The notes: generated by a model from the letters alone, not told the origin. DNA of 39,253 nt from a virus (UHGV-1369056); one strand, 5' to 3'; shown: positions 1 through 38,354, counted from the first letter of the stretch. Program-made: numbers and translations.

Positions 1-78
1 ACAACCATAAGTCACAACCATAAGTCACAACCATAAGTCACAACCATAAGTCACAACCATAAGTCACAACCATAAGAC
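1..78. repeat. Tandem array of a 13-bp unit ACAACCATAAGTC (5 perfect copies plus 1 imperfect copy); the array continues across the window boundary
   Basis: Direct reading: units at 1-13, 14-26, 27-39, 40-52, 53-65, variant acaaccataagac at 66-78. The last 13 nt of the window (ataaccataagtc) are a further near-copy. Confidence 0.9.
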
Positions 79-722
79 ACCAACGCCTACAGTCAAAGGC
101 CTACAGTTAATCGACACACAGCTATAGACTTAAGGTCAAAGACATGTTAGTCAAAGACTATATCCTCTTACACCATGGGGCCGACGATAGCTTACTCAAT
201 ATTATTTCAAATTACCTATTGACTACAGGTCTAGACTATGGCTTAATAGATTCCGTCAACACGACACGGCAACAACCGATAGTGAAGACGCCGGGTCATC
301 CCGGTTAAGTAGACAGCCTGATAAGTCATACGAACAACAGGCAGATGACAGAAGCAGTTGACAAGCTGTACCGACTTAAAGTAGTATGTACCACGTAGCA
401 AGATGGCGTAGGGATAGGAACCGAGAAACCTGCCCGAGACCAGCCAAGGATAAGGCACCAGCTGTGAGTCGAATTCGGTCACTCACCGCATAAAAGAATA
501 ACAGGTTGACAGCCTCCTTTAAAAGCTGTAAGCTGTACCACATCGAAACGACAGTGAGTCCCAACACTGAAACGGGATAGCACGGCGACGACAGCCAACG
601 CGAATGCTCTTTAACAATCTGGATAAACTCTTAATGTGCGCCGATAGCGACTAACTACAGGGTCTTTGAGTCTACATCTGAAGGCCTTGACTGATAGTCA
701 CTAACTTAAATAGGGTAACATT

Positions 723-899
723 ATGAAAATCATAGCGATGAACGAAGAACTGGGCGTAATCTGGTATACGGCTAACGACTATAAGTATCGCACTAAGCAT
801 GTGATAATCTACGGATTGTCTAAGACTGAGTGGGATAGCCGTGAGCAAGCGCAGGACGCGTTCAATAAGTGCCTGAACCATGCGTTCAATTGCCAGTGA
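723..899 (+). CDS. Hypothetical small early protein (58 aa, MKIIAMNEELGVIWYTANDYKYRT...)
   Basis: ATG at 723, TGA at 897-899, read by hand (below the 60-aa cutoff of the ORF track). Same strand as all other genes; preceded by a copy of the repeated early element tgatagtcactaac. Weak SD. Confidence 0.35.
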   Translation: MKIIAMNEELGVIWYTANDYKYRTKHVIIYGLSKTEWDSREQAQDAFNKCLNHAFNCQ

Positions 900-980
900 T
901 TAACTACAGGTCGTTAGACTCATAGCGGCCTGATTGATAGTCACTAACATACACACAATTAACTTTGAGAGGATATAAAT

Positions 981-1325
981 ATGGAACGTAACGCTAACGC
1001 ATACTATGACCTGCTGGCTGCAACCGTTGAGCTGTTCAATGAGCGTATTCAGTACGACGAAATAGCTGAAGGCGATGATTATTACGATGCGCTGCATGAA
1101 GTCGTAGACTATATGGTTCCGCACTATTACCACGAGATTTTCACGGTAATGGCTGCTGATGGTATAGACCACGAGTTTGAGGACTCTGGGCTGATGCCTG
1201 AAACCAAGGATGTAACGCGTATACTGCAAGCCCGCATCTATGAGGCGCTTTATAACGACGTGTCTAATAGCTCGGATGTGGTCTGGTTTGAGGATGAAGA
1301 GGCAGACGAGGAGGATTGCGAGTGA
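981..1325 (+). CDS. ocr: Ocr-like anti-restriction protein (T7 gp0.3 homologue), DNA mimic
   Basis: 114-aa acidic protein; the segment VPHYYHEIFTVMAADGIDHEFEDSGLMPETKDVTRILQARIYE closely matches T7 Ocr as recalled (VPHYY..IF.VMA.EGID.EFEDSGLMPDTKDV.RILQARIYE); acidic C-terminus; SD gagagg upstream. Confidence 0.9.
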   Translation: MERNANAYYDLLAATVELFNERIQYDEIAEGDDYYDALHEVVDYMVPHYYHEIFTVMAADGIDHEFEDSGLMPETKDVTRILQARIYEALYNDVSNSSDVVWFEDEEADEEDCE

Positions 1326-1815: not shown

Positions 1816-1971
1816 GTGATAAACGAGAGGTCATCGACTGATAGGTGGCCTCAAAGATTATCACTTACATTGATAGGGGTTAACTATGAGTGTGGGATAT
1901 TTGGTATGCCTAGCGCCAGTTATCTGGATGATAGGTTATGGGATATACGATTGTATTAAACGGAAATCACT

Positions 1972-2169
1972 ATGAGTATCGAACTATTGATAGCCATAGG
2001 CTATGGACTTATCGCCTACATGCTGATGAGAGACATCAACAAGGCACGTAAAGTCTATAAATTCAACTATGCACGTCTGGGCCGCTGGACTGTACGCCAA
2101 CCTAATGGGCGATTCGCGCGTAACTTAGCGAACGTCTGGGATATAGCAACTCTTGGGAGCAAACTGTAA
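1972..2169 (+). CDS. Hypothetical early protein (65 aa) with hydrophobic N-terminus (possible membrane anchor)
   Basis: ORF on + strand; N-terminal LLIAIGYGLIAYML hydrophobic stretch; stop overlaps the next ORF start (TAATG). Confidence 0.4.
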   Translation: MSIELLIAIGYGLIAYMLMRDINKARKVYKFNYARLGRWTVRQPNGRFARNLANVWDIATLGSKL

Positions 2170-2495
2170 TGAACAAGTCATACGGGATTAATTTGGTACG
2201 CTCTATGGACGCAGAAATGAACATGTTAAGCCTACTGGCTACCGGGTATCGTCACGGAACGTCAAGTCACACCGCACGTCAACAGCAGGAGCGGGACCGT
2301 GTACTACAGGCACGACTCAGGGCAGAGGGCCATAAGTCCGAGCTGATGTGTCTGGCGTATGGTGGACGACCAATCACCGACGATGGTAAACTTCTGGTCT
2401 CAGGCTGGAAGGCGATAGACCAACGGTCAACCATCAAGCACACGACTCACGGTGACTTCAGTCATCTTCACGCTAACCCTCTGATATGCAAGTAA
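2169..2495 (+). CDS. Hypothetical early protein (108 aa), in the position T7 gene 0.7 occupies but not a protein kinase
   Basis: ORF directly upstream of the RNA polymerase gene; no kinase motifs and far too short for a gp0.7 homologue. Confidence 0.45.
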   Translation: MNKSYGINLVRSMDAEMNMLSLLATGYRHGTSSHTARQQQERDRVLQARLRAEGHKSELMCLAYGGRPITDDGKLLVSGWKAIDQRSTIKHTTHGDFSHLHANPLICK

Positions 2496-2500
2496 TTATG

Positions 2501-2592: not shown

Positions 2593-5274
2593 ATGAGCGT
2601 CATCTCTATTGAAAAACACGACTTCTCTGATGTGTCGAACGCCATTGAGCCGTTTAACCTGCTGGCTGACCACTACGGGCAAGACCTTGCAGTCAAACAG
2701 CTTCAGCTTGAGCACGAGGCATACACTGAAGGCGAGCGACGTTTCATCAAGAACCTTGAGCGCCAGACTGAGCGCGGGGAACTGGCAGACAATCAGGTCG
2801 CCAAGCCTTTGATGCAGACTCTGGTCCCTAAGATTGCGCAAGCCGTAAGGGAGTGGCATGAAGGGCCAGACGGGAAGCTGTCAACCTCTCGTCCTAGCGT
2901 GGCGTTCACCATGTTGAGCACTGAAGAGAAGGCCGTCAAGGACCGCTCTCTGCGCATCTCATGTGAGTCTGCTGCGGTTATCATACTGAAGGTCATACTC
3001 TCCAAGCTGGTCAAGCCTGAAGGGATACCGATTACACCGATGGCCTCCGCGATAGGTCGCACACTTGAGGACGAAATCCGCTTCGGCCGCATCCGTGACA
3101 AGGAGAAAGAGCACTTCAAGAAGGCGATAGCTGATAACCTGAATAAGCGGGCCGGGGCGTCCTACAAGAAAGCCTACATGCAAGCGGTCGAGGCATCCAT
3201 GCTGGAGCAAGGCCAACTGGAAGATGCGTGGGGGACTTGGAGTCCTACAGAGGCTGTCCACGTTGGCATCAAGATGCTTGAGATTGTCATCCAGTCAACA
3301 CAACTGGTCGAGCTTAAGCGGTACGGTGCTGGCAATGCAGCGGCTGACGTAGAGATGGTCCACCTGTCAGACTGCTGGGTCAAGAAGATGGCACAACGAG
3401 GATTCAGCCTTGCGGGTATCGCTCCAGTCTACCAGCCTTGCGTCGTTCCACCTAAGCCGTGGACTGGTGTCGTAGGCGGTGGGTACTGGGCCAAAGGTCG
3501 CAGACCGCTGCCCCTGATTCGCTTAGGGTCTAAGTCAGCGGTGGCACGTTATGAAGACGTATACATGCCTGAAGTCTATGACGCTGTGAATATCATCCAG
3601 AATACACCTTGGAAAGTGAACAAGAAGGTGCTGGACGTGGTGAACATGGTCGAGAAGTTGAACAACACACCTATTGATGACATCCCTCAGATGGAGCCAC
3701 TGAAGCCTGAAGACTATGCGGGTGAGACTGAAGAGGAACTCAAGGCATGGAAGAAGGCTGCTGCTGGTATCTACCGCCGAGAGAAGGCCCGGCAGTCACG
3801 TAGATTGTCACTGAGCTTTATCGTTAACCAAGCGAACAAGTTCTCTCAGTTCAAGGCCATCTGGTTTCCGTACAACATGGACTGGCGCGGTCGCGTCTAC
3901 GCTGTGCCGATGTTCAACCCTCAGGGTAACGACATGCAAAAGGGTCTCCTGACTCTGGCAGTCGGTAAGCCTATTGGTGCTGATGGTTTCAAATGGCTGA
4001 AGGTCCACGGTGCAAACTGTGCGGGTATTGATAAAGTAACCTTCGAGGAGCGCATCAAGTGGGTGGAAGATAACCACGACAACATCATGGCTACCGCTAA
4101 GGCACCGATGGACAGCATTGAGTGGTGGGGTAAGTTAGACTCTCCGTTCTGCTTCCTAGCGTTCTGCTTCGAGTATGCTGGCGTAATGCACCACGGTTTG
4201 TCTTACTCCTGCTCGCTGCCGATAGCTTTCGATGGGTCCTGCTCTGGGATTCAGCACTTCAGCGCGATGCTTCGTGACCACATCGGTGGGCATGCAGTAA
4301 ACCTAACGCCATCCGGTAAGGTCCAAGACATCTATCGCATTGTGTCTGACCGCATTGAGGAGGAACTCAAAGTCCTGCTGGTTAACGGTACGGACAACGA
4401 GATGGCAACTCACGAGGACAAGAAAACTGGTGAGATTACCGAGCGTCTCAAGCTGGGGACACGAGAGCTGGCCCGTCAGTGGCTGACCTACGGTATGTCA
4501 CGCAAGGTCACTAAGCGTTCGGTCATGACTCTGGCCTACGGGTCGAAAGAGTACGGCTTCGCAGACCAAGTATACGAGGACATCGTGATGCCAGCGATTG
4601 ACTCAGGGTCTGGCGCTATGTTCACTGAACCAAGCCAAGCGTCTCGCTTCATGGCTAAGATGATTTGGGAAGCTGTGAGTGTGACAGTAGTTGCTGCGGT
4701 TGACGCGATGAAGTGGCTTCAAGGTGCTGCCAAGCTGCTGGCTGCTGAGGTGAAGGACAAGAAGACTGGAGAAATCCTGAAGCCTTGTCTTCCGGTACAC
4801 TGGGTCACACCTGATGGGTTCCCGGTATGGCAGGAATACCGCAAGAAGGATACCACTCGTCTGAACCTGATGTTCTTAGGGTCATTCAACCTTCAGCCTA
4901 CAGTCAACAAAGGCACGAAGAAAGAGCTGGACAAGCACAAGCAGGAGTCAGGCATTAGCCCGAACTTCGTCCACTCACAAGATGGTAGCCACCTCCGAAA
5001 GACTGTAGTCCACACTCACCGCAAGTATGGCGTGATGTCATTCGCAGTGATTCACGATAGCTTCGGGACCATCCCGGCTGACGCTGAGTATCTGTTCCGT
5101 GGCGTCCGTGAGACGATGGTAGAGACTTACCGCGACAACGATGTGCTGCTTGACTTCTACGAGCAGTTTGAATACCAGCTTCACGAGAGCCAGCGCGACA
5201 AGTTGCCTGAGCTTCCGAAGAAAGGTAAACTGAATATCGAGGACATCTTGTCTTCAGACTTTGCATTCGCTTAA
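2593..5274 (+). CDS. 1: Single-subunit DNA-directed RNA polymerase (T7 gene 1 homologue)
   Basis: 893 aa; C-terminus ...HSQDGSHLRK...IHDSFGTIPADA...FAFA and many internal blocks are characteristic of T7-type RNAP; SD upstream. Confidence 0.98.
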   Translation: MSVISIEKHDFSDVSNAIEPFNLLADHYGQDLAVKQLQLEHEAYTEGERRFIKNLERQTERGELADNQVAKPLMQTLVPKIAQAVREWHEGPDGKLSTSRPSVAFTMLSTEEKAVKDRSLRISCESAAVIILKVILSKLVKPEGIPITPMASAIGRTLEDEIRFGRIRDKEKEHFKKAIADNLNKRAGASYKKAYMQAVEASMLEQGQLEDAWGTWSPTEAVHVGIKMLEIVIQSTQLVELKRYGAGNAAADVEMVHLSDCWVKKMAQRGFSLAGIAPVYQPCVVPPKPWTGVVGGGYWAKGRRPLPLIRLGSKSAVARYEDVYMPEVYDAVNIIQNTPWKVNKKVLDVVNMVEKLNNTPIDDIPQMEPLKPEDYAGETEEELKAWKKAAAGIYRREKARQSRRLSLSFIVNQANKFSQFKAIWFPYNMDWRGRVYAVPMFNPQGNDMQKGLLTLAVGKPIGADGFKWLKVHGANCAGIDKVTFEERIKWVEDNHDNIMATAKAPMDSIEWWGKLDSPFCFLAFCFEYAGVMHHGLSYSCSLPIAFDGSCSGIQHFSAMLRDHIGGHAVNLTPSGKVQDIYRIVSDRIEEELKVLLVNGTDNEMATHEDKKTGEITERLKLGTRELARQWLTYGMSRKVTKRSVMTLAYGSKEYGFADQVYEDIVMPAIDSGSGAMFTEPSQASRFMAKMIWEAVSVTVVAAVDAMKWLQGAAKLLAAEVKDKKTGEILKPCLPVHWVTPDGFPVWQEYRKKDTTRLNLMFLGSFNLQPTVNKGTKKELDKHKQESGISPNFVHSQDGSHLRKTVVHTHRKYGVMSFAVIHDSFGTIPADAEYLFRGVRETMVETYRDNDVLLDFYEQFEYQLHESQRDKLPELPKKGKLNIEDILSSDFAFA

Positions 5275-12895: not shown

Positions 12896-12941
12896 GTCTA
12901 AACTCAAGGTCATTCACATAGAGTGGCCTTTATGATTAGAC
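12895..12941 (+). promoter_or_regulatory. RNase III-like processing stem-loop (copy B of 3)
   Basis: Lower stem gtctaa/ttagac, upper stem aaggtcatt/agtggcctt, loop cacatag; same architecture as copies A and C; located just upstream of the DNA polymerase gene, like T7 R4.7. Confidence 0.55.
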
Positions 12942-12958
12942 TAAACGGAGGATTAACC

Positions 12959-15130
12959 ATGTTTGACCTTAAGAGTATCTGGGGTTCTGACATCGAGACC
13001 AACGGTCTCCTTGATACAGTCTCCCAGTTTCACTGTGGGGTCCTGATTAACGCCGAGTCGAATGAGACCCTTAAGTATGGGGTAGCTCCGATGGTCGGTA
13101 TCGTCGGTGGCTTCAAAGAGTATGTTCATAAAGTGGAAGAGATTGCCGCATCGCCTGATGGTATGCTGGTATTTCACAACGGTATCAACTATGACGTACC
13201 GGCTATCGACAAGCTGAAGCGTCTGTACTTTGGGAAACGTTTTAACTTCCCGAAACACAAGATGATTGATACATTGGTGCTGGGACGCTTGATGTATCCA
13301 AACATCAAGTTCTCAGACATGGGAGCGGTGAAAGCTGGTCGTCTGCCGCCTCAGATGATGGGACGCCAGTCTCTTGAGGCTTGGGGTTATCGTCTTGGTG
13401 AGATGAAGGGTGAGTACAAGCATGATTACGTTGCCAAATGCAAGGCTGAAGGTATCAAATATAAGGCTGGGGACGAATGGTTGTTCCCGTCTCAGGAGAT
13501 GCTGGACTATAACGTTCAAGACGTTGTGGTAACACTGGCTTTGTTCAAGAAGTTCCTGACTGACAAGTATTACTTCCAGTCTGAACAGTTCGCTTTCGAC
13601 CAGATTTATGCGTTGCGTCTGGAACATGATGCTGCGTGGACCTGTGCGAAGATGGAACGTAACGGATATCCGATGAACATCGAGATGGTCGAAGGCTTAT
13701 ATCGTGAACTCACCGTCAAACGTGCAGAGTTGCTGGACAAGCTGCGTTCGACTTTCGGTAGCTGGTACGCACCAAAGGGAGGCAAGGAGTTCTTCAAGCA
13801 CCCACGGACAGGCAAGGACCTTCCGAAGTATCCGCGAGTCGTGTACCCTAAGGTAGGTGGCATCTTTAAGAAGCCGAAGAACAAAGCTCAACGCTTAGGT
13901 CTTGAACCTTGTGAACGCGATACGCGAGACACGATGGAGGGAGCACCGTTCACACCTATCACCTACGTTGAGTTTAATCCGGGAAGCGGAGACCACTTAG
14001 CGAAAGTCTTGATGGAGCGGGGCTGGGAGCCTGTGGACTTCACTGACACAGGGAAACCTGTAGTCGATGACGAGACGTTAGAACACGTTAAGTTGCCAGA
14101 CGCAGAGGCTCAGGCTTGCGTAGAGCTGGTCCGTGAGTATCTGGTAGTCCAGAAGCGCATAGGTCAGGCGGCTGAAGGTAAGAACGCATGGTTGAAACTT
14201 GTAGGTCCAGACGGACGTATGCACGGTTCAATCAACCCATGCGGGGCAGTAACCGGACGTGCGACTCACAGTTCACCAAACATGGCTCAGGTCCCTGCTA
14301 ACGGTGCTCCGTATGGTGAGATTTGCCGTGGTGCTTTCGGTGCAGCTTGGAACAAGACGGATGGTAAGCCAGACCCTTGGATTCAAGTGGGTGTGGATGC
14401 TTCAGGTCTTGAGCTTCGTTGTCTTGGGAACAGAGCGGCTCCGTTTGATGGTGGTGCATATGCGAAGACTGTGGTCGAAGGTGACATCCACTGGGCCAAC
14501 GCAGTAAACGCTGGGTTAGCACCTAACGTCCCACGCGATAAGTCGAGCCACGACCATGATGCTTTCCGTGACAACGCTAAGACGTTCATCTATGCGTTCC
14601 TGTATGGTGCAGGGGCCGCTAAGATTGGACTGATAGTAGGCGGTGGGAAGAAGGAAGGTTCAGCTCTCATGAAGAAATTCATTGAGGGTACACCAGCCAT
14701 CAAAGACCTCAGGGAAGCTGTGAGTAATACGTTAATCTCAGACTCTAAGTGGGTGGACGGTGAGAATATCGTCAAGTGGAAACGCCGTTGGTTGCGTGGA
14801 CTTGATGGTCGCCGTATCCACATCCGGTCGCCGCACTCAGCACTGAACGCATTACTTCAAGGTGATGGTGCGGTAGTCTGTAAGCACTGGATGGTTCTGA
14901 CGGAGAAGAAACTTGAGGAGGCTGGTTATGGTAACGGTTGGGATGGGGACTTTGCGCTAATGGCTTGGATTCACGACGAATTGCAGATTGCGTGTCGTAC
15001 TCAGGAGATTGCCGAAGAAGTCGTCCGTATTGCACAAGAAGCAATGCGTGAGGTCGGACGTTTTTATAACTTCAAGTGTGAGCTTGATACGGAGGGTAAG
15101 ATTGGACCAACGTGGAAAGAATGCCATTGA
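12959..15130 (+). CDS. 5: DNA polymerase (T7 gp5 homologue, family A)
   Basis: Exo motif DIETNGL, FHNG.NYDVPA, GEMKGEYK, YNVQDVVVT, HPRTGK.LPKYPR, KVGGIFKKPKNKAQR, AVTGRATH, DASGLELRC, DNAKTFIY.FLYGAG, HDE.Q and C-terminal GPTWKECH match T7 gp5. ATG 12959 with SD ggagga is preferred over ATG 12923, which lies inside the upstream hairpin. Confidence 0.97.
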   Translation: MFDLKSIWGSDIETNGLLDTVSQFHCGVLINAESNETLKYGVAPMVGIVGGFKEYVHKVEEIAASPDGMLVFHNGINYDVPAIDKLKRLYFGKRFNFPKHKMIDTLVLGRLMYPNIKFSDMGAVKAGRLPPQMMGRQSLEAWGYRLGEMKGEYKHDYVAKCKAEGIKYKAGDEWLFPSQEMLDYNVQDVVVTLALFKKFLTDKYYFQSEQFAFDQIYALRLEHDAAWTCAKMERNGYPMNIEMVEGLYRELTVKRAELLDKLRSTFGSWYAPKGGKEFFKHPRTGKDLPKYPRVVYPKVGGIFKKPKNKAQRLGLEPCERDTRDTMEGAPFTPITYVEFNPGSGDHLAKVLMERGWEPVDFTDTGKPVVDDETLEHVKLPDAEAQACVELVREYLVVQKRIGQAAEGKNAWLKLVGPDGRMHGSINPCGAVTGRATHSSPNMAQVPANGAPYGEICRGAFGAAWNKTDGKPDPWIQVGVDASGLELRCLGNRAAPFDGGAYAKTVVEGDIHWANAVNAGLAPNVPRDKSSHDHDAFRDNAKTFIYAFLYGAGAAKIGLIVGGGKKEGSALMKKFIEGTPAIKDLREAVSNTLISDSKWVDGENIVKWKRRWLRGLDGRRIHIRSPHSALNALLQGDGAVVCKHWMVLTEKKLEEAGYGNGWDGDFALMAWIHDELQIACRTQEIAEEVVRIAQEAMREVGRFYNFKCELDTEGKIGPTWKECH

Positions 15131-15245
15131 CGGAAAGTCCCAGCACTTCACTGGTGCTGCTAGTGAGCTATATGCAAGCTTTAGGCTGACAGCCAATGGG
15201 CATCAAGTGTTCCTCCCAGCATTCACGCAGTCAAAGGCAGACTTG

Positions 15246-15500
15246 GTGGTCGATATAGACGGGACCCTTACGAGGGTTCAGGTCAAGACCGGAACGAAGC
15301 TGAAGAACTGTAATAGCATACAGGTAAGGCTGGGAGGATGTGGTAAGCCGACTTACAGTCCTGGAGACATCGACCTACTAGCGGTTGTTTATCAGGATTT
15401 CCTCTGGCTTATACCGTTCACTGAAGAGGTTAGAGTCAAGACCTCTATGTGTATAAACTTAACGTCTGACAAGAAGTACGGACAATTTAAACAGGAGTAA
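15246..15500 (+). CDS. Hypothetical protein with a PD-(D/E)xK-like motif; start codon uncertain (no in-frame ATG)
   Basis: The frame is open from 14988 (inside gene 5) to 15500 with no ATG after the gene 5 stop; GTG 15246 (SD-like aaagg ~9 nt upstream) or GTG 15207 are possible starts. Contains DLVVDIDGTLTRVQVKTG, resembling the PD...(D/E)xK nuclease core; rich in rare codons (agg, ata, aga, cta). Confidence 0.3.
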   Translation: MVDIDGTLTRVQVKTGTKLKNCNSIQVRLGGCGKPTYSPGDIDLLAVVYQDFLWLIPFTEEVRVKTSMCINLTSDKKYGQFKQE

Positions 15501-20937: not shown

Positions 20938-21981
20938 ATGGCAAACGTTCCGGGTCAGAAAATTGGTACAGACCAAGGTAAAGGCAAATCCAGTTCCGAC
21001 GCTCTGGCGTTGTTCCTGAAGGTATTTGCTGGTGAAGTCCTGACCGCATTCACTCGCCGCTCTGTAACTGCTGACAAGCATATTGTCCGTACCATTCAGA
21101 ACGGTAAGTCTGCTCAGTTCCCGGTCATGGGTCGCACCTCTGGTGTGTATCTGGCTCCGGGTGAGCGACTGTCCGATAAGCGTAAAGGTATCAAACATAC
21201 TGAGAAGGTGATTACCATTGATGGTCTGCTGACTGCCGATGTGATGATTTTCGACATTGAAGACGCGATGAACCACTACGACGTGGCTGGTGAGTATTCC
21301 AACCAGTTGGGTGAAGCTTTGGCTATCGCTGCTGATGGTGCGGTTCTGGCTGAAATGGCTACCCTGTGTAACCTCCCAGCTGCATCCAACGAGAACATCG
21401 CTGGTCTTGGAACTGCTTCCGTACTGCAAGTTGGTAAGAAAGCTGACCTCGACACCCCGGCTAAACTGGGCGAAGCAATCATCGGTCAACTGACCATTGC
21501 TCGTGCGAAGCTGACCTCCAACTACGTTCCTGCTGGCGACCGTTACTTCTACACCACACCGGACAACTACTCTGCAATCCTCGCGGCTCTGATGCCTAAC
21601 GCTGCTAACTATGCTGCGCTGATTGACCCAGAGACTGGTAACATCCGTAACGTGATGGGCTTCGTTGTTGTTGAAGTTCCGCATCTGGTACAGGGTGGTG
21701 CTGGTGAGACCCGTGGTGCCGATGGTATCACTATCGCTTCCGGTCAGAAACACGCATTCCCAGCGACTACTGCTGGCGACGTTAAAGTTGCTATTGACAA
21801 CGTTGTGGGCCTGTTCTCTCACCGTTCTGCTGTGGGTACTGTGAAACTGCGTGACTTGGCGCTGGAACGTGACCGTGATGTCGATGCTCAGGGTGACCTG
21901 ATTGTTGGTAAGTACGCTATGGGTCACGGTGGTCTGCGTCCTGAAGCGGCGGGCGCACTGGTTTTCAGCCCAGCGATGTAA
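20938..21981 (+). CDS. 10A: Major capsid protein 10A
   Basis: 347 aa; ALFLKVF.GEVLTAF, GKSAQFPV.GRT, HTEKVITIDGLLTADV, DIEDAMNHYDV, AAILAALMPNAANYAALIDPE, NVMGF.VVEVPHL, HRSAVGTVKLRDLALER, KYAMGHGGLRPEAAG are near-identical to T7 gp10A. Confidence 0.98.
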   Translation: MANVPGQKIGTDQGKGKSSSDALALFLKVFAGEVLTAFTRRSVTADKHIVRTIQNGKSAQFPVMGRTSGVYLAPGERLSDKRKGIKHTEKVITIDGLLTADVMIFDIEDAMNHYDVAGEYSNQLGEALAIAADGAVLAEMATLCNLPAASNENIAGLGTASVLQVGKKADLDTPAKLGEAIIGQLTIARAKLTSNYVPAGDRYFYTTPDNYSAILAALMPNAANYAALIDPETGNIRNVMGFVVVEVPHLVQGGAGETRGADGITIASGQKHAFPATTAGDVKVAIDNVVGLFSHRSAVGTVKLRDLALERDRDVDAQGDLIVGKYAMGHGGLRPEAAGALVFSPAM

Positions 21982-22112: not shown

Positions 22113-22116
22113 TTGA

Positions 22117-22156
22117 AACCCCTTGGGTGCCTTCGGGTGCTTGAGGGGTTTTTTTT
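22117..22156 (+). terminator. T-phi-like late terminator
   Basis: aaCCCCTTGGGtgccttcgggtgcTTGAGGGGTTTTTTTT: GC-rich hairpin plus T-run, very similar to the T7 T-phi sequence (AACCCCTTGGGGCC...TCTTGAGGGGTTTTTTG) and in the same place after the capsid gene. Confidence 0.9.
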
Positions 22157-22166
22157 CGGAGGATTA

Positions 22167-22598
22167 ATGAAGGTATGTATAGGATGCCACACGGAGAAGG
22201 ACTTGGGGTCTTTCACGCCAAATGGCAGGACATGTAAGGGCACACAGAAATACAGAAGCAGATGCCGAGAGTGCGAGAACTCAAGGCAGGCTGCCATACG
22301 AGAGGAAGCTCCCAACAAATCACGATACTCAGCGGAAAGACTTAAAGGCTACCAACTTAAAAGCTCGTTCGGTATGACATATGACGAGTGGTTCTCCCTT
22401 ATGGAGTCTCGTGGTTGGGCCTGTGAGATTTGCTCGCGAACAGTAGAGACATCTGGTAGAACACTGGCTGTAGACCACAGTCACTCCACTGGTGAAATAC
22501 GAGGCGTGCTTTGTCAGAGGTGCAACTGTGCCATAGGACTCCTAAGTGAGAATCCAGAGCATATTGCAAACGCTATACGCTACCTTAAAGGAGATTAG
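22167..22598 (+). CDS. HNH endonuclease (endonuclease VII-like), probable homing endonuclease
   Basis: HNH motif AVDHSHSTGEIRGVLCQRCNCAIG plus N-terminal Cys cluster CIGCH...C...CREC. ATG 22167 with SD ggagga is preferred over 22113, which lies in the terminator. Codon usage atypical for this genome (aga, agg, ata). Confidence 0.8.
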   Translation: MKVCIGCHTEKDLGSFTPNGRTCKGTQKYRSRCRECENSRQAAIREEAPNKSRYSAERLKGYQLKSSFGMTYDEWFSLMESRGWACEICSRTVETSGRTLAVDHSHSTGEIRGVLCQRCNCAIGLLSENPEHIANAIRYLKGD

Positions 22599-22600
22599 TA

Positions 22601-23167
22601 ATGGCTCAATACATTCCACTGAATGCTAACGATGACTTAGACGCCATCAACGATATGTTAGCTGCTATCGGTGAACCAGCAGTCCTACAGCTTGACGAGG
22701 GGAACGCTGATGTCTCGAACGCTCAACGTATACTGCATCGTGTCAATCGTCAGGTCCAAGCTAAAGGCTGGAACTTTAACATCAACGAAGCTGCTGTCCT
22801 GACACCTGATGTCCAAGACAATAGGATTCGATTCCTTCCGTCATACCTTCGTGTAATGACTGCTGGGGCCACCAGCTACTACAGCAACATGGGTGGATAC
22901 CTGTACGACCTGTCCACTCAGTCAACCACTTTCACTGCCCCTATCACGGTAGAGCTTGTGGAGATGAAGCCATTCTCCGAGATGCCTGTGGTCTTCAGGG
23001 ACTACATCGTCACTAAAGCTAGCCGTGAGTTCAACGCTAAGTTCTTCGGTAGCCCAGAGTCAGAGCTATACCTTCGTGAGCAGGAAGCAGAACTCTATCA
23101 GCAGGTTATGGAGTACGAGATGGACACTGGTCGCTACAACATGATGTCAGACATCGGGAGGGACTAA
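22601..23167 (+). CDS. 11: Tail tubular protein A, gp11 homologue
   Basis: 188 aa; INDMLAAIGEP, RILH.VNRQVQAKGWNFNI, RDYIVTKASREFN.KFFG.PE and MEYEMD.G.YNM match T7 gp11. Confidence 0.93.
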   Translation: MAQYIPLNANDDLDAINDMLAAIGEPAVLQLDEGNADVSNAQRILHRVNRQVQAKGWNFNINEAAVLTPDVQDNRIRFLPSYLRVMTAGATSYYSNMGGYLYDLSTQSTTFTAPITVELVEMKPFSEMPVVFRDYIVTKASREFNAKFFGSPESELYLREQEAELYQQVMEYEMDTGRYNMMSDIGRD

Positions 23168-32100: not shown

Positions 32101-33067
32101 CCTGTTAGATGCTGGACGTCAAGGCTTCCTGTCTGACATCGTGGAGCATAGCCTGACTGGTAGTAAGCGTAAGTTCGATGACCGCTGGCTGAAGACCGCT
32201 GGTATATCTGACGAGCAGTGGAAGGGCATTAAGTCATTAATCCGTGAGTCAGTGACTCGTGGTCCAGACGGGAAGTACACCATCAAGGATAAGAGGGCGT
32301 TCAGTCAGGACCCAAGGGCTATGGACCTGTGGCGTATGGGTGACACCATCGCTGACGAAACGTTACTCCGGCCCCACAAGCTGTCAAACATGGATGCCAA
32401 GGCTTATGGTCCTCTCGCTAAGACTGTCCTTCAGTTTAAGAACTTCGTCATCAAGTCCATCAATGGACGTACCATGCGAACCTTCTATAACGCCACGAAG
32501 AACAACCGAGCGATGGATGCTGCTCTATCTACCGTGATGTCTATGGGTCTGGCTGGTATCTACTACATGGCTCAGGCTCACGTCAAGGCTTACGCTATGC
32601 AGGATGGCAGAGACCGTGAATACCTCAAGCAAGCTCTTGACCCGACGATGATTGGTTATGCGGCTCTGTCCCGTAGTTCACATCTGGGTGGTCCACTTGG
32701 GGTAGCTAACATTCTGGGTGGCATCGCTGGGTATGAGGACACTAAGATGCTCCGTTCGTCTATCCTACCTCGTTCGCCTACAGAGAAGCCTGAACGTGCC
32801 ATCGCGTATGGTGCGGCTACAAGTGACCCTGTTATGAATGTTGTTGGTAACTTCTTGGAGCAGGTTCCAGCTTTCGGATATGCTGCTAACGTTGGCGCTT
32901 CGGCTTACAACTTGGCTGGCTACCTCAAGGCTGATACTCGCGTCAACGAGCGTGACTACATGACCGGGATGTATAATACGTTCCGTGAACTGGTTCCGAA
33001 CGACCCAATTACCCAGAAGCTGTTACTTGGAACGTTTGAGGAGCAAGGCATCCACATCAAGGACTAA
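29180..33067 (+). CDS. 16: Internal virion protein D (gp16 homologue) with a divergent N-terminal domain
   Basis: 1295 aa; from ~residue 200 onward long blocks match T7 gp16 (STWFGFGAATEAE, ARETARN, LVRSPTGMQSGASGK, NPAMFG, GTYVPHVY, SRPEVK.RVDE, KAYGISH, NSFLEARNLFDSD, AYNRRVNGDIAIMA, ILTGRARR, GTTNYLLDA, DPRAMDLWR, ALSRSS, FMTGM, VPNDP). The N-terminal ~190 aa (MATRGIRNNNPGNIR...) do not match the T7 transglycosylase domain. Confidence 0.93.
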   Translation: MATRGIRNNNPGNIRVSKDQWEGMTGDDGAFVTFDSPESGVRALGKNLLSYGRRGYDSIEKIINRWAPPNENDTKAYIDSVVAATGIPATQSLDLSDPDTLSSLAQAISFHETGSRYDPEVYQKGVARALNGISPKTPPVSANVFDALTEGLKAKPKAALGENLPTAAGLNIEGQAPEAPNESFGEMFYKSTGKTMQEREDRSTWFGFGAATEAEVKNSMVGVAIRAGQTEDSLDVIGDVFNPTRWNNHKWSREELDQIRNAGVLPQYYGVITGGSPQNLTELINLALENQKLDQEKAKAGIGAQLAAGVIGAGVDPLTYVPIAGQVGKGGKLVNKMFTVAAQSGALAGVSEMARTSVAGGDAHVAEAILGGALFGGGMTAIADGLGRALGRNTNEFAGPATRLEARETARNVDGQDLSRLPIQEGEETFSHQGVKLADVPNEPGSVRLEDGSILIGENPLNPKTRKVFDEVIEPERAAAGVNLGGLTEIGLKLLRSENPEIRGVAADLVRSPTGMQSGASGKIGTTASDVFERLRAVDHRFYNDIDDAVTEALKDPYFQTAFWRDSGAFRQDIYQRVSMAIEDGSGNLKAELTPGELKVYDLLKNQFDAKREMMENPAMFGRPDAQSIFPGSRFKGTYVPHVYSNQMKELYIKELGSPEALQEAIKKSWLTSYASRPEVKKRVDEALLEADPTLTPEGLAAAVDKYANDKAYGISHTEQFERSSVMEENINGLVGLENNSFLEARNLFDSDMSIVLPNGQTFSVNNLREWDMDKIVPAYNRRVNGDIAIMAGTGKTTKEMKDLVETMMNKAGDDGKLKGEVSTLRDTLKILTGRARRDGADDAAFATVMRTMTDLSFFAKNAYMGVQNLTEIGGMLARGNVRAMLHGVPIFRDLAFRNKKVGASEIKDLHNVIFGKELDDSIRPSKQDVIDRLRSYSDLGRGTATALGTAKYYTGELAVRSPFTKVLNGTTNYLLDAGRQGFLSDIVEHSLTGSKRKFDDRWLKTAGISDEQWKGIKSLIRESVTRGPDGKYTIKDKRAFSQDPRAMDLWRMGDTIADETLLRPHKLSNMDAKAYGPLAKTVLQFKNFVIKSINGRTMRTFYNATKNNRAMDAALSTVMSMGLAGIYYMAQAHVKAYAMQDGRDREYLKQALDPTMIGYAALSRSSHLGGPLGVANILGGIAGYEDTKMLRSSILPRSPTEKPERAIAYGAATSDPVMNVVGNFLEQVPAFGYAANVGASAYNLAGYLKADTRVNERDYMTGMYNTFRELVPNDPITQKLLLGTFEEQGIHIKD

Positions 33068-33085
33068 ACTATCACTATAGGAAAC
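33063..33085 (+). promoter_or_regulatory. Phage RNAP promoter, ACTAAACTATCACTATAGGAAAC
   Basis: Consensus match; overlaps the gp16 stop; upstream of the tail fibre gene (as T7 phi17). Confidence 0.8.
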
Positions 33086-33131: not shown

Positions 33132-35132
33132 ATGTCCACGATTACACAATTCCCTTCAGGAAACACTCGGTACAGGATTGAGTTCGACTACCTAGCCAGA
33201 ACGTTTGTTGTTGTTACGCTGGTGAATAGCTCTAACCCTGCCCTGAACCGTGTACTAGAAGTTGGTCGAGATTACCGATTCCTTAATCCAACGATGATTG
33301 AGATGTTGGCTGACCAATCAGGTTTCGACGTCGTTCGTATTCACCGTCAGACTGGAACTGACTTAGTGGTAGACTTCAGGAATGGCTCAGTGTTGACAGC
33401 TAGTGACCTGACCAATTCGGAGCTTCAGGCTATCCATATTGCAGAAGAAGGGCGAGACCAAACTGTTGACTTAGCGAAGGAATATGCCGATGCTGCTGGT
33501 AACTCTGCTGGCAGCGCTAAGGATAGCGAGGACGAAGCACGACGAATAGTTTCGAGTATCAGGGAGGCTGGTCTAATTGGCTATATTACCCGTAGCTCCT
33601 TCGAGAAAGGCTTCACCGTTACACTATGGAACGAGGTCCTGCTAAGGGAAGAGGATGGTTATTATTACCGCTGGGATGGTGCTCTCCCAAAAACAGTGCC
33701 TGCAGGTTCAACCCCTGATTCCAATTGGACTAACGTAGGTAAGCTGAATGGGCTTGATGAGCACTCACCTGAGAACTTTGGGGCAATCCCGAACGACCCC
33801 AGCTTTGACTGTCTACCTGCTATAAAATTGGCCATAGCTACAGGCACATTAAACCTTGATGGCAAGGCTACCTACCACGTAACAGATGAGGTTGTTATCC
33901 CCTCTTACCTACGTGGGAATCTAAATGGGGCAACAATTAAAGCAATTGGTCCAACATGGCCTGCATTAAAATCTGTTGTTCGTGTTAGTAAATTTCCTAT
34001 TGGAACCAAAACCGTTGATGTAGCTAATACTGAGAACCAAGTACGAGGGCTACGTTTGATTGGCAGTCTTAACATAGACTGTGCAGACATTGCATCGTAT
34101 GGTTTTTACGCACGACTAATGTGTGCAGAATCCGAGATGGGTAGTATCTATGCATATAATGCTAATAGATATGGCATTGTAATGTTTGCTTGCTGGTATT
34201 TTCAAATGGGTACTCTCCATGCAAACAACTGTGCAAGGGGCGTGGCATTAGGTTATTCAACGGAAGGTGAGCAAGGGGATACCTATGTAAATGCTACACA
34301 CTTCCCTCACATTAGTGCATGGGGTACAGATAAGTCTACTGGACTAGGTTATGACCCAATCACAGATGATGCGAGTAAATATACGATAGGTGCTGGTATT
34401 ATCTTAGGTCGTGGTTTATCTACTAGTGTTGGTGTGATTTGCTCTGAGAATACATCTGGTGCTGGTGTGGTAACAATGGACCCTGCTGCGTGGGACATTG
34501 GGGTTATGTACTGCGAGGGCAACAGTAAAGACTTCACTCAGGTGGGTGAGCCGAAGGTATCATTATTGTCGTCTAAGGCTAACAGCGAGAGTCATACACT
34601 TACCATCTCTACACTTCACCTATCTGCTGGTTGTGGTATCTTAACCAGAAGTAATCAAGAGCGTGTGCTAATCAGAAGTCTTTATCGTTTTGATAATTCA
34701 AGAACCTTCCACTCCTATTGCACAGCAGACACAGTAGAGGTTGGTAGCAGCAACTACTATGTACTTAACGGGCATAATTACAACGCACCTGCTGCACTTA
34801 TTAAGGAACCCCTTAATGTAGATTTTGTGCGCTCAGGGCTGACTTTGAGTGAGTGGACAACTACCGTTATCGGTCATTTCGCCGGTAGTACAGCAGAACA
34901 GCAGCTTTATGTTAAGTTGCCAGCAAGTCCCAGTGGTCTGGACCTACAGATAGCTAGTGAGGAGGGGACAGAATATATCACTGTAACCGGTACAGATTTT
35001 AAAGCATCTCTAACTAAGAAAAGACTACCCAGTAAATTATATGAGATAAGGATTGGTGGGGTATCTACAGTACCCGTTGCCGATTGCTCTGTTCTAATTA
35101 GAAGTAGGAAAGGTGATTGGTACTACTGGTAA
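33132..35132 (+). CDS. 17: Tail fibre / tailspike protein (gp17 homologue): conserved N-terminal adaptor domain plus divergent C-terminal domain
   Basis: The N-terminal ~150 aa (FDYLAR.FVVVTL...DYRF...DF.NGSVL.A.DL...[12 protein letters not shown]) match the T7 gp17 N-terminus. The remainder is unrelated to T7, AT-richer, with Gly/Asn-rich repetitive segments that suggest a beta-helix. Confidence 0.9.
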
Positions 35133-35174
35133 CAACTTTGGGTCAAGGACGACCCGCTTTAAACTGGAGGTTTT

Positions 35175-35369
35175 ATGATTGAGTTAGACTTCAAGAATGA
35201 GGTCCTTAAAGCCTCTCCTATCGTTGGGACCGCTGCGGCTGATGGTGCCAGTCGGTTCTTCTTCGGACTTACACTGAACGAATGGTTCTACGTTGCAGCT
35301 ATCGCGTACACCGTTGTCCAGATTGGTGTGCTAGTCTACAAAACGATTAAAGGAGGTGGTAAAACATGA
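35175..35369 (+). CDS. 17.5: Holin (gp17.5 homologue)
   Basis: 64 aa; KASPIVGTAAADGASRFFFGLTLNEWFYVAAIAYTVVQIG is near-identical to T7 gp17.5. Confidence 0.88.
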   Translation: MIELDFKNEVLKASPIVGTAAADGASRFFFGLTLNEWFYVAAIAYTVVQIGVLVYKTIKGGGKT

Positions 35370-35629
35370 CGCAGATGGACTTAGAGAAGTTCCTCTTAAT
35401 GCTAGATACTGAACGTGCTCGACTCATGCTGCAAGACTTGCGGGATGACACTAAGCGTTCACCTCAGCTCTACAACGCCATTGAGAAGCTGCTTGCTCGT
35501 CACAACTTTGTGTTAAGCAAGGTGTCTGTTGACGAGAAGACGCTGGCTGATATGGAGGCCCTGAACGCAGAGTACGATAAGGTGCTTTCAGCGACTGAGG
35601 ATAATGACACAGGGTATGGTGTTCAATAA
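35366..35629 (+). CDS. 18: Terminase small subunit (gp18 homologue)
   Basis: 87 aa; FLLMLDTERARLMLQDL.D..KRSPQLYNAIEKLLARHNF matches T7 gp18 (FLEMLDTAMAQRMLADL.D.ERRSPQLYNAINKLLDRHKF). Confidence 0.88.
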   Translation: MTQMDLEKFLLMLDTERARLMLQDLRDDTKRSPQLYNAIEKLLARHNFVLSKVSVDEKTLADMEALNAEYDKVLSATEDNDTGYGVQ

Positions 35630-35679
35630 GTGTTAGACTCAAGGTCATTACTATATGTAGTGGCCTTTATGGTTAACAC
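35630..35679 (+). promoter_or_regulatory. RNase III-like processing stem-loop (copy C of 3)
   Basis: Lower stem gtgtta/taacac, upper stem aaggtcattac/gtagtggcctt, loop tatat; between genes 18 and 18.5, as T7 R18.5. Confidence 0.55.
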
Positions 35680-35730
35680 TAACTAGTGGAGGCGACTCTA
35701 CGTGAAATCTGATAAACCGGGAGGGCAACT

Positions 35731-36168
35731 ATGCTCGAATTTTTAAAGAGAGCGGCTCCGTGGTTACTTGCAGCAGTGATGTTTGCTGGTGGCTACCACA
35801 CCGCTAACAATAAGTGGGAGGCTAAGGTCAATGCAGAATACACCTCGAATCTTAAGGCATCGGAAGATACAAGGCTTGCTGTCCAAGCTGAAGTCAACAA
35901 AGTGTCCAAACGGTTTCAGGACGAAATGTCCTCGTTGGAAGGCAGCACTGATAGGATTATTGCTGACCTTAAGTCTGACAATAAGCGGCTGCGCGTCAAG
36001 GTCAACACCTCAGGTCTCACCGAGTCAGATGTCAGTCGATGCTTCCCTAATGGTAGAGTCGAACTACACCCAGAAACTTCTAAAAGTCTTATCCGAATAA
36101 CTCAGGAGGCAGACCTTAAGGAGAAGGCGCTTCAGGACACAATAAGGAGGCTCCAAGGTGTTAAGTGA
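35731..36168 (+). CDS. 18.5: i-spanin (Rz-like, gp18.5 homologue)
   Basis: 145 aa, N-terminal transmembrane segment (WLLAAVMFAGGY), coiled-coil-like remainder; position after gene 18. Confidence 0.8.
   Translation: MLEFLKRAAPWLLAAVMFAGGYHTANNKWEAKVNAEYTSNLKASEDTRLAVQAEVNKVSKRFQDEMSSLEGSTDRIIADLKSDNKRLRVKVNTSGLTESDVSRCFPNGRVELHPETSKSLIRITQEADLKEKALQDTIRRLQGVK
35831..36100 (+). CDS. 18.7: o-spanin (Rz1-like lipoprotein, gp18.7 analogue) embedded in the +1 frame of gene 18.5
   Basis: Embedded ORF contains a signal-like KAALIGLLLTLSLTISG followed by Cys (lipobox-like ISGC; Cys codon at 35990-35992) and a Pro/Ser-rich mature part. Start uncertain (ATG 35831 or 35783). Confidence 0.5.
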   Translation: MQNTPRILRHRKIQGLLSKLKSTKCPNGFRTKCPRWKAALIGLLLTLSLTISGCASRSTPQVSPSQMSVDASLMVESNYTQKLLKVLSE

Positions 36169-36595
36169 TTACTACAAAGTGGACCAGGCGAGTCCATCCG
36201 GTCTGGTCTCCGTTAGGACTGGAAAGCCTGTGGGGACATTAAGTCGGATGGGATATTGGATAGTACAGACACGAAGTCTAGGCAGTAAGCGGGCACATCG
36301 CGTGATATGGGAACTAACCAATGGTCCTATACCACATGGTATGCAAATAGATCACATCGACAGGAACCCCAGCAATAATACCTTAAGTAACTTACGGCTC
36401 GTTACTGCCGCTGAGAACACTTGGAATACGGGTAGCCATTATGACTCTAAGACGGGAGTGAAGTGCGTTACCCGTCACCAGAATGGTTATAGGATTCAGG
36501 TTAAACGCGGGAATGTCTATATGCGAACAACACGTCCTACTTTAGAGGAGGCTATCTCTGTCCGGGACCTAATGCTGGAGGGACTCTATGTCTAA
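36158..36595 (+). CDS. HNH homing endonuclease
   Basis: HNH motif [26 protein letters not shown]; GTG start at 36158 with strong SD aaggagg 7 nt upstream, overlapping the 18.5 stop; codon usage atypical (ata, agg, aga); inserted between 18.5 and 19. Confidence 0.8.
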
Positions 36596-38354
36596 GAAAA
36601 CACCTGTTGAAAGACAGGCAGAAATGACCCGAAGGATGAGGGACGACTTCGTATTCTTCATCTTCGTTCTCTGGAAAGCTCTTAGCCTTCCGGTTCCAAC
36701 ACGCTGCCAGATAGATATGTGTAAGAAGCTGGCTGCTGGGGATAATCGCCGCTTCATCCTTCAGGCTTTCCGTGGTATCGGCAAGTCGTTTCTGACCTGT
36801 GGTTTCGTGGTCTGGAAGTTATGGAACAACCCAGACTTGAAGTTCATGATTGTGTCGGCCTCAAAGGAACGAGCCGATGCGAACTCCATCTTCATCAAGC
36901 GAATCATCGACCTCATGCCTCAGCTTCAGGAACTCAAACCTAAGCAGGGACAGCGAGATGCGGTTATTAGCTTCGACGTTGGGCCAGCCAAGCCAGACCA
37001 CTCACCTTCGGTTAAGTCTGTTGGTATCACTGGTCAGTTGACTGGTAGTCGTGCTGACATCCTGATTGCCGATGACGTGGAGGTTCCGAACAACTCAGCG
37101 ACTCAGGCTGCCAGAGACCGTCTGTCAGAGCTTGTGAAAGAGTTCGACGCTATCCTGAAGCCGGGAGGTACAATCATCTATCTGGGTACTCCTCAGAACG
37201 AGATGACCTTGTATCGTGAGCTGGAAGGCCGTGGATACACCACTACTATCTGGCCTGCTCGTTATCCACGTGATAAGAAGGACTGGCAGTCTTACGGCGA
37301 CCGTCTGGCACCGATGCTTCAGGCAGAGCTGGAAGAGGACCCTGAGTCCTTCTACTGGCGTCCTACCGATGAAGTACGATTCGATGATACGGACCTGAAG
37401 GAACGTGAGCTGTCTTATGGTAAAGCTGGCTTCGCTCTACAGTTCATGCTTAACCCTAACCTGAGTGATGCCGAGAAGTACCCTCTGAAGCTCCGTGACC
37501 TTATCGTAGCAGACTTGGACCCAGCGTCTAGCCCAATGGTCTACCAATGGCTTCCTAACCCTCAGAACAAGCGTGAGGACGTTCCTAACGTTGGACTCAT
37601 GGGTGACTCATACCACACGTATCAGACTGTAGGTTCTGCCTTCAGCTCGTACACCCAGAAGATTCTGGTCATTGACCCTAGTGGTCGTGGTAAGGATGAA
37701 ACTGGATATGCGGTACTATACCAGCTCAACGGCTACATCTTCGCTATGGAAGTTGGTGGTATGCGTGGAGGTTATGAAGACTCTACTCTGGAAGCTCTGG
37801 CTAAGATTGGTCGTAAGTGGAAGGTCAACGAATACGTCATTGAGGGTAACTTCGGTGATGGTATGTACCTTGAGTTATTCAAGCCTGTAGCGGCCCGTAT
37901 CCATCCTGCGGCTGTAACTGAAGTGAAGAGTAAGGGTCAGAAGGAACTCCGCATCTGTGACGTTCTGGAGCCTATCATGGGGTCTCACAGACTTATCGTT
38001 AACGCTGCTGCTATCGTCCAAGACTACCAGTCAGCCTCTGATAAGGATGGTGTTCGTAACCCTATCTACTCTCTCTTCTACCAGATGACCCGTATCTCTC
38101 GTGAACGTGGAGCCTTGGCACACGATGACCGACTTGATGCGCTGGCTATCGGTGTACAGTTCTTCGTTGAGTCTATGGCTAAGGATGCCAACAAAGGCGA
38201 ACGTGAAGTCACTGAGGAGTGGCTGGAGGAACAGATGGAGAACCCACGGAAAGGCTTCGAGTCCATCCACACTGAGTTCTGGGACAATGGGGTCCGAGTA
38301 ACTCACGATACGGACGACGAGCTGGGACTAGGGGCCTACGTTACGTTTCACTAG
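36588..38354 (+). CDS. 19: Terminase large subunit (gp19 homologue)
   Basis: 588-aa ORF in the gene 19 position (T7 gp19 is 586 aa); Walker A-like QAFRGIGKS and Walker B-like ILIADDVE. Confidence 0.97.

Follow-up and report, generated by a model that had tools for sequence, protein, structure and literature searches.

Between the spanin genes and the large terminase gene of the phage analyzed here, a Kayfunavirus (Studiervirinae) represented by a 39,253-nt stretch of DNA (the window), lies a free-standing gene that we assign to the HNH(HNN)-AP2 homing endonucleases. It occupies positions 36158..36595 on the plus strand and encodes 145 amino acids in 438 nt from a GTG start. Pfam and PHROG identify the neighboring genes as those for a holin, the small terminase, an i-spanin with an embedded o-spanin and a T7-type large terminase. 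The upstream neighbor, gene 18.5 (35731..36168, plus strand), is the i-spanin gene according to PHROG 1327 (Rz-like spanin, 2.5e-56) and the annotation of Citrobacter phage CR44b; the o-spanin gene 18.7 (35831..36100, plus strand; Pfam O_Spanin_T7, 3.3e-19) is embedded in it in another frame, with a start position adopted from the CR44b annotation. The downstream neighbor, gene 19 (36588..38354, plus strand), encodes the large terminase subunit, TerL (Pfam Terminase-T7_RNaseH-like, 6e-38; PHROG 38), and is the likely reason for the targeting of this site. The HNH gene starts 7 nt behind a Shine-Dalgarno sequence, AAGGAGG (36144..36150, plus strand), that lies within the last 18.5 codons. The 18.5 stop codon, TGA (36166..36168), falls inside the first HNH codons and creates an 11-nt overlap, and at the other end the TerL ATG at 36588 and the HNH TAA ending at 36595 overlap by 8 nt in the string ATGTCTAA. 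An ORF of this extent and length, with a GTG behind a strong Shine-Dalgarno sequence, an overlap with the 18.5 stop and an end 8 nt past the terminase start, had been described in a first-pass annotation; the ORF call on the plus strand, the domain matches presented below and the spacings given here bear it out. The rare codons remarked on there are equally evident: the self-CAI of the gene (0.548) is the lowest among 18 genes, and AGG, AGA, CGG, CGA, ATA and CTA make up 11.1% of its codons versus 0.3-6.9% in large genes. The i-spanin gene is also rich in these six rare Arg/Ile/Leu codons (9.0%). Two minus-strand ORFs, at 36172..36321 and 36569..36757, were rejected as spurious; they are short, and the genes of this genome all lie on one strand.

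The HNH gene has no dedicated promoter and is expressed from the late message, since no copy of the CTAAACTATCACTATAGG family lies between 33060 and 38446. Members of this 22-nt family, which end in CTAAACTATCACTATAGG and presumably are promoters for the phage's own RNA polymerase, occur in 11 copies (2498, 5818, 7574, 8550, 10901, 16983, 19804, 20810, 25783, 33060 and 38446). The nearest copy upstream of the HNH gene (33060..33081, plus strand) gives rise to a late message that begins upstream of the tail-fiber gene. A sigma-70 promoter scan of the region stayed at chance level with no convincing signal, and terminator-like hairpins near the HNH gene are weak and mostly on the minus strand, which has no called genes here or in annotated relatives. 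Rfam, searched at E <= 1 on both strands of 35000..37200, returned no family, which argues against an intron or known RNA element around the gene. We considered and rejected an intron- or intein-encoded homing endonuclease; the gene has its own start and stop between two complete genes, and no Rfam family was found. Two repeats were also observed. A hairpin-type 49-nt repeat (84% identity) is present upstream of 18.5 (35633..35681) and early in the genome (5841..5889), and the first of these copies occupies what we take to be the position of the T7 R18.5 RNase III site, a resemblance by position. The window opens (1..91) with five to six tandem copies of a 13-nt unit, ACAACCATAAGTC; such tandem repeats are typical of the terminal regions of T7-like genomes.

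The encoded protein matches Pfam HNH_3 (PF13392) over residues 44-87 (E = 6.7e-21; 74 bits against a cut-off of 24.8) and PHROG 99, "HNH endonuclease", over nearly its full length (E = 5e-40). The first-pass annotation had singled out the lack of an HNH domain as the finding that would speak against its reading, and the domain search instead returned a strong one. NCBIfam yielded no match to the protein, and Pfam at E <= 10 recovered HNH_3 only, with AP2 and PF01844 both absent. The PADLOC matches are confined to "homing endonuclease" (HEase) models, and a defense-system reading of the gene was rejected on these grounds. The His-Me finger (beta-beta-alpha-metal) catalytic core spans residues 44-90 (36287..36427, plus strand) and contains the catalytic Asp-His together with structural and metal-binding Asn residues: H47, D65, H66, L79, R80, N87 and N90 are invariant and N78 is nearly so. 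An AlphaFold2 model computed with 27 homologs as input is confident (pLDDT 90.5) and predicts a C-terminal AP2-like DNA-binding domain (residues ~100-141; 36455..36580, plus strand), in which three beta-strands form a sheet on a helix. Since Pfam detects no AP2 even at the permissive threshold, we base this assignment on the fold; in more distant homologs, Pfam finds AP2 alongside HNH_3. The protein has one cysteine, C103, and no CX2C dyads.

The best solved structure by sequence is a weak match (E = 0.044), I-HmuI, the nicking homing endonuclease of Bacillus phage SPO1 (PDB 1u3e). The two proteins share the same D-H...N...N motif. However, I-HmuI resides within a group I intron and has a helix-turn-helix end, whereas the protein described here is free-standing and has an AP2-like end. 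We conclude that it is an I-HmuI-like His-Me finger nuclease with an AP2-like domain, that is, a member of the "HNN-AP2" class. Members of this class, also called "IPA-HNH" phage homing endonucleases, likewise combine an N-terminal HNH(HNN) with a C-terminal AP2 domain. They are free-standing phage endonucleases that are dispersed and prone to degeneration (PMC2248197; PMC10448857) and that occur sporadically beside essential genes (Magnani et al. 2004 as cited in PMC2248197 and PMC10448857). HNH proteins with Cys dyads, in contrast, have a fixed place near packaging genes (PMC2248197). The family of our protein occurs in 1,924 phage records at many scattered positions, T7 gp3.8 included. This T7 protein is 36% identical to ours over residues 7-105 and is encoded in the early/middle region, whereas the sub-clade at or above ~50% identity is tied to the large-terminase start.

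The gene is already known. Its CR44b ortholog (YP_009007189; 97.9% aa identity) is annotated as "3.8A, HNH endonuclease / predicted homing endonuclease", a "3.8A" gene is annotated at the same junction in CR8, and a 2022 paper described the ortholog of Hafnia phage Ca, including identical GTG/TGA and ATG/TAA overlaps (PMC8861465). Over 2 kb, Salmonella phages ST16, ST56 and CHRF_30030 as well as CR44b match the region at 96-97% identity. The orthologs in these four phages and in vB_HpaA_yong1 share the junction, the ORF length (438 nt), the GTG/18.5 overlap and the ATGTCTAA overlap with the gene of the source phage and differ from it by point differences only, with a private 1-nt insertion in the yong1 record. 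The latter (MK610268, 40,286 bp) is the record of Hafnia phage Ca. Its HNH gene (859..1297 in our locus L012) contains an extra T after nucleotide 57, CCGTTTAGG versus CCGTTAGG, that shifts the frame, and the "homing endonuclease" annotated there has just 46 aa. Because six other carriers are intact, this T represents a mutation private to that record or an error in its sequencing, and we rejected it as a sign of lineage-wide decay. Hafnia phage Ca was also reported to undergo a spontaneous 397-bp deletion, present at >98% in small plaques and rare in large ones (PMC8861465).

Comparison of the 18.5/19 junction among phages that share 88-97% DNA identity over the surrounding 2 kb revealed five or more states among these Kayfunavirus relatives, in addition to T7, which has nothing there. 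The allele of the source phage, allele A, is found in 14 records at 95-99% aa identity; among seven copies inspected, six have the intact 438-nt ORF and the seventh is that of yong1. Allele B (101120B1-2, SR04, PRF-SP11 and others) is ~64-67% identical to allele A at the aa level, and 41 records fall in the 60-80% identity band to the HNH protein. Allele C, in pO91 (L008, 859..1245), encodes 128 aa with a different 3' end, and the N-terminus of pO91 gene 19 is recoded within a 29-nt overlap. Deletion scars constitute further states. Scar 1, in Penshu1, R1 and KM02, matches exactly a 384-nt in-frame deletion between two copies of GGACC that a direct-repeat scan and the scar sequences place at 36181..36185 and 36565..36569 on the plus strand; scar 2, in Ro45lw, is a separate deletion at a CTAC microhomology. 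These two are independent deletions, and the series as a whole contains two or three independent scars. Finally, the junction is unoccupied in eight records of the pO2 type (pO2 and seven others) and, in a second form, in IMG/VR loci L014-L022; in these relatives it has apparently never been occupied. In T7, a 21-nt spacer with no gene separates the end of 18.5 (37348) from the start of gene 19 (37370), in agreement with the first-pass statement that T7 has nothing between 18.5 and 19. In an independent sample of 80 IMG/VR loci picked by TerL similarity, the HNH family lies upstream of TerL in two and is absent from the other 78. The gene is thus sporadic at a single site and dispensable for its carrier, and the scars, the frameshifted copy and the published deletion together outline a cycle of gain, degeneration and loss.

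These comparisons also dispose of the concern, raised in the first-pass annotation, that the frame might be a fused or ancestral part of gene 18.5 or 19, because close relatives lack the gene (pO2, T7) or carry deletion scars in its place. The comparative genomics proposed there supports insertion of a free-standing HNH homing endonuclease gene between the spanin and TerL genes, a reading on which domain search, predicted fold and junction genomics agree. In other T7-like phages, unrelated sequences occupy this position. L049 has an unrelated 53-aa ORF (MMWKTTYLFLDG..., about 2337..2498) at the same junction, followed by its own copy of an AGGAGG-plus-start region for gene 19, and L030 has an unrelated ORF of ~200 aa (about 1860..2480). 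The 18.5/19 junction looks like an insertion hot spot. In L093, a second HNH_3 gene (4701..5225; 174 aa) lies directly downstream of TerL, and the terminase gene is there flanked by two HNH genes.

The 3' end of the HNH gene contains the start signals of its essential neighbor. The last HNH codons (..LEGLYV*) hold a gene 19 initiation region, GGAGGGA followed by 4 nt and the ATG (36577..36590, plus strand). In eight of eight HNH-bearing loci compared, GGAGG is present in the last HNH codons just upstream of the TerL ATG, and this ATG overlaps the HNH stop by 8-29 nt. In the pO2 type, this same AGGAGG precedes a GTG start codon of gene 19, which shares with 18.5 an 11-nt overlap like that of the HNH gene. 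Most simply, the insert would have captured the initiation signals that gene 19 originally used and would provide replacements at its own 3' end. Three homologs with 50-56% identity, P0007 (L034; assigned to the ORF by sequence match), P0008 (L093) and P0006 (L095), likewise immediately precede TerL, with an overlap; the phages that carry them have GC contents of 39.5%, 49% and 60%. The TerL of L034 is just 73% identical to that of the source phage. P0009, a ~47-52% identical homolog, is located elsewhere than at the TerL start. All four scar genomes retain the 3' region with the Shine-Dalgarno sequence and the gene 19 ATG, and all four have in-frame mini-ORFs (17, 18, 17 and 23 codons) that run from the HNH GTG to the TAA overlapping this ATG. 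The deletion in Ro45lw is out of frame, and an extra 1-nt deletion restores the stop at that TAA; without it, a ribosome would read 30 codons further. In yong1, copies of TGGA lie exactly 397 nt apart, and from the sequence we infer that the published 397-bp deletion, if it occurred at TGGA, would leave a 14-codon in-frame scar with the Shine-Dalgarno sequence. These features hint that translational coupling of gene 19 has been selected for, but fall short of proof.

Patterns of divergence indicate that the protein is maintained by selection. Allele A copies differ by 9-11 synonymous and 2 non-synonymous changes, a dN/dS of 0.05-0.06 that equals that of TerL (0.058); within allele B the value is 0.10. 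With a ratio as low as that of TerL, the HNH protein is evolving under purifying selection and has not become a relic. Identity profiles and mismatch tracks further revealed that recombination boundaries bracket the gene. In yong1, L013, KM02 and Ro45lw, 18.5 is a divergent allele (63-78% nt identity) as far as about 36000, and identity to the source phage is 91-100% from there through the HNH gene, so the 3' end of 18.5 and its embedded 18.7 (36000..36157, plus strand) co-segregates with the HNH allele and marks a left recombination boundary or a co-conversion tract. Phages 101120B1-2 and SR04 are 98-99% identical to the source phage to about 35990, divergent to about 36520 and identical thereafter, and in PRF-SP11 allele B is joined to an A-like 18.5 end at about 36160. 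In all three, the 3' tract at 36520..36595 (plus strand) is identical between alleles A and B and constitutes the right boundary of the exchanged cassette. The mosaic breakpoints at about 36000, 36160 and 36520 bracket the gene, although ordinary modular recombination would look similar; the pattern is consistent with, and not decisive for, nuclease-stimulated gene conversion with co-conversion of flanks. A similar mosaic pattern has been generally described for phage homing endonuclease genes (PMC10448857).

Altogether, we consider it highly probable that this ORF is a free-standing HNH_3, or "HNN-AP2", homing endonuclease gene at the Kayfunavirus 18.5/19 junction that would spread by homing. 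It is dispensable, polymorphic among near-identical phages and lost by microhomology deletions. We envision a scenario in which, during mixed infection, the HNH protein would bind the unoccupied 18.5/19 junction of a relative through its AP2 domain and N-terminal strands and nick or cut it, I-HmuI being a nicking enzyme. Repair by recombination with the carrier's genome would then copy the gene along with flanking sequence, including ~150 nt from the 3' end of 18.5 to the left and the gene 19 start to the right. The carrier genome would itself be immune because the insertion splits the target. The cleavage or nicking, repair and immunity steps of this scenario are proposed by analogy with I-HmuI and the free-standing homing endonucleases of T-even phages. 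Two observations weigh against homing. The mosaic boundaries could have arisen by ordinary modular exchange among T7-like phages, and the dominance of the deleted form in small plaques of Hafnia phage Ca hints at a cis or trans benefit of the region, which a purely selfish model does not predict.

The position of the gene, immediately upstream of TerL and overlapping it, and at the same place in divergent T7-like phages, raises the alternative that the protein is a packaging cofactor that cuts concatemers with the terminase, as HK97 gp74 does. The authors of the Hafnia phage Ca study, in whose small plaques genomes with the 397-bp deletion predominate, raised this parallel themselves (PMC8861465). 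The gp74-type cofactors (Kala et al. 2014, summarized in PMC8861465 and PMC10448857) are also small His-Me finger proteins encoded beside terminase genes. However, they belong to PF01844, contain Cys dyads, act with another type of terminase and are conserved across their phage group, whereas the protein described here has no PF01844-type match at E <= 10, lacks CX2C dyads with its single cysteine and falls in the dispersed HNN-AP2 class (PMC2248197). Kala et al., as summarized in PMC8861465, linked the HNH cofactors to the Terminase_1 family; the TerL of the source phage is instead T7-type (PF22530 with a weak, sub-threshold match to Terminase_6N). The gene is moreover missing from T7, from the pO2-type and L014-type Kayfunavirus and from 78 of the 80 related IMG/VR loci, and it has been deleted from Penshu1, R1, KM02 and Ro45lw, which were isolated as plaque-forming phages. 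We therefore regard a gp74-like role as very improbable. The first-pass remark that HNH endonucleases recur beside terminase genes mixes gp74-type packaging cofactors with HNN-AP2 homing endonucleases, and the gene of the source phage is of the second kind.

It is somewhat easier to imagine, yet still unlikely, that the gene is kept mainly for an effect in cis, with a 3' end that now carries the only Shine-Dalgarno sequence and ATG of gene 19 and couples gene 19 to 18.5 while the nuclease may be idle. The GGAGG before the stop-overlapping TerL ATG in every HNH-bearing locus compared, the signals and in-frame mini-ORFs retained by the four scar genomes (with the frame restored in Ro45lw) and the identity of the last 75 nt in alleles A and B all accord with such an effect, as do the plaque-size phenotype of Hafnia phage Ca and the frameshift in its deposited HNH gene. 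But this accounts for the last ~30-75 nt only and leaves unexplained an intact 145-codon ORF, a dN/dS of 0.05 and invariant catalytic residues; the scars themselves show that the coding body is expendable. An effect in cis complements homing and does not replace it. As for the possibility that the ORF is an inactive, decaying relic of a homing endonuclease gene, the scars and the single frameshifted copy (yong1) in relatives, together with the poor codon usage of the gene, are what decay would leave behind. Yet the ORF is intact in the source phage and in six other allele A carriers, the differences among allele A copies are overwhelmingly synonymous (9-11 versus 2), the catalytic D-H...N...N set is complete and the predicted fold is confident, and we give this reading only a very slight chance.

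As one more free-standing homing endonuclease gene in a T7-like phage, the HNH gene is ordinary. Its modest value lies in the natural series at a single junction, which comprises unoccupied sites, three alleles, two or three scars and a reported laboratory phenotype and which lends itself to measurements of homing, of co-conversion and of what it costs a phage to lose a selfish gene that absorbed the translation start of an essential neighbor. For engineering of therapeutic Kayfunavirus phages, it delimits a dispensable segment of ~380 bp of which the last ~30 nt should be kept. We also raise, as a tentative idea that may well prove wrong, the possibility that an HNN-AP2 sub-clade has specialized on the T7-type TerL start and become hard to lose by taking over gene 19 initiation and holding the sole remaining Shine-Dalgarno sequence and ATG of gene 19 in its last codons. 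In such a translational-coupling "addiction" to a selfish gene, a deletion would be viable only if a short ORF still ran from the HNH start to the stop that overlaps the gene 19 ATG. If true, this would explain why the scars are in frame and why Ro45lw has a frame-restoring 1-nt deletion, as well as the effect on plaque size reported for Hafnia phage Ca. The junction series and this possible "addiction" are the sole, mildly interesting extras of the locus.

The first-pass annotation had called the gene the second HNH endonuclease of this genome. Another free-standing nuclease ORF is indeed present, though it is of the Endonuclease_7/His-Me finger type and not a paralog; blastp and phmmer found no paralog of the HNH protein in the source genome, and the two other nuclease ORFs belong to unrelated families. 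The ORF at 22113..22598 (plus strand; 161 aa), probably the "first HNH" of that annotation and a free-standing nuclease, has Endonuclease_7 (PF02945, 2e-19) and a His-Me finger b4a2 domain and lies between the capsid gene (20938..21981) and the tail tube A gene (22601..23167). An "endonuclease VII" is listed among the extra genes of Hafnia phage Ca relative to phage ST31 (PMC8861465). The ORF at 14988..15500 (plus strand), possibly a third mobile nuclease gene, overlaps the DNA polymerase gene (12923..15130) at the latter's end and encodes a PD-(D/E)XK_5 endonuclease domain (PF11645, 5e-10).
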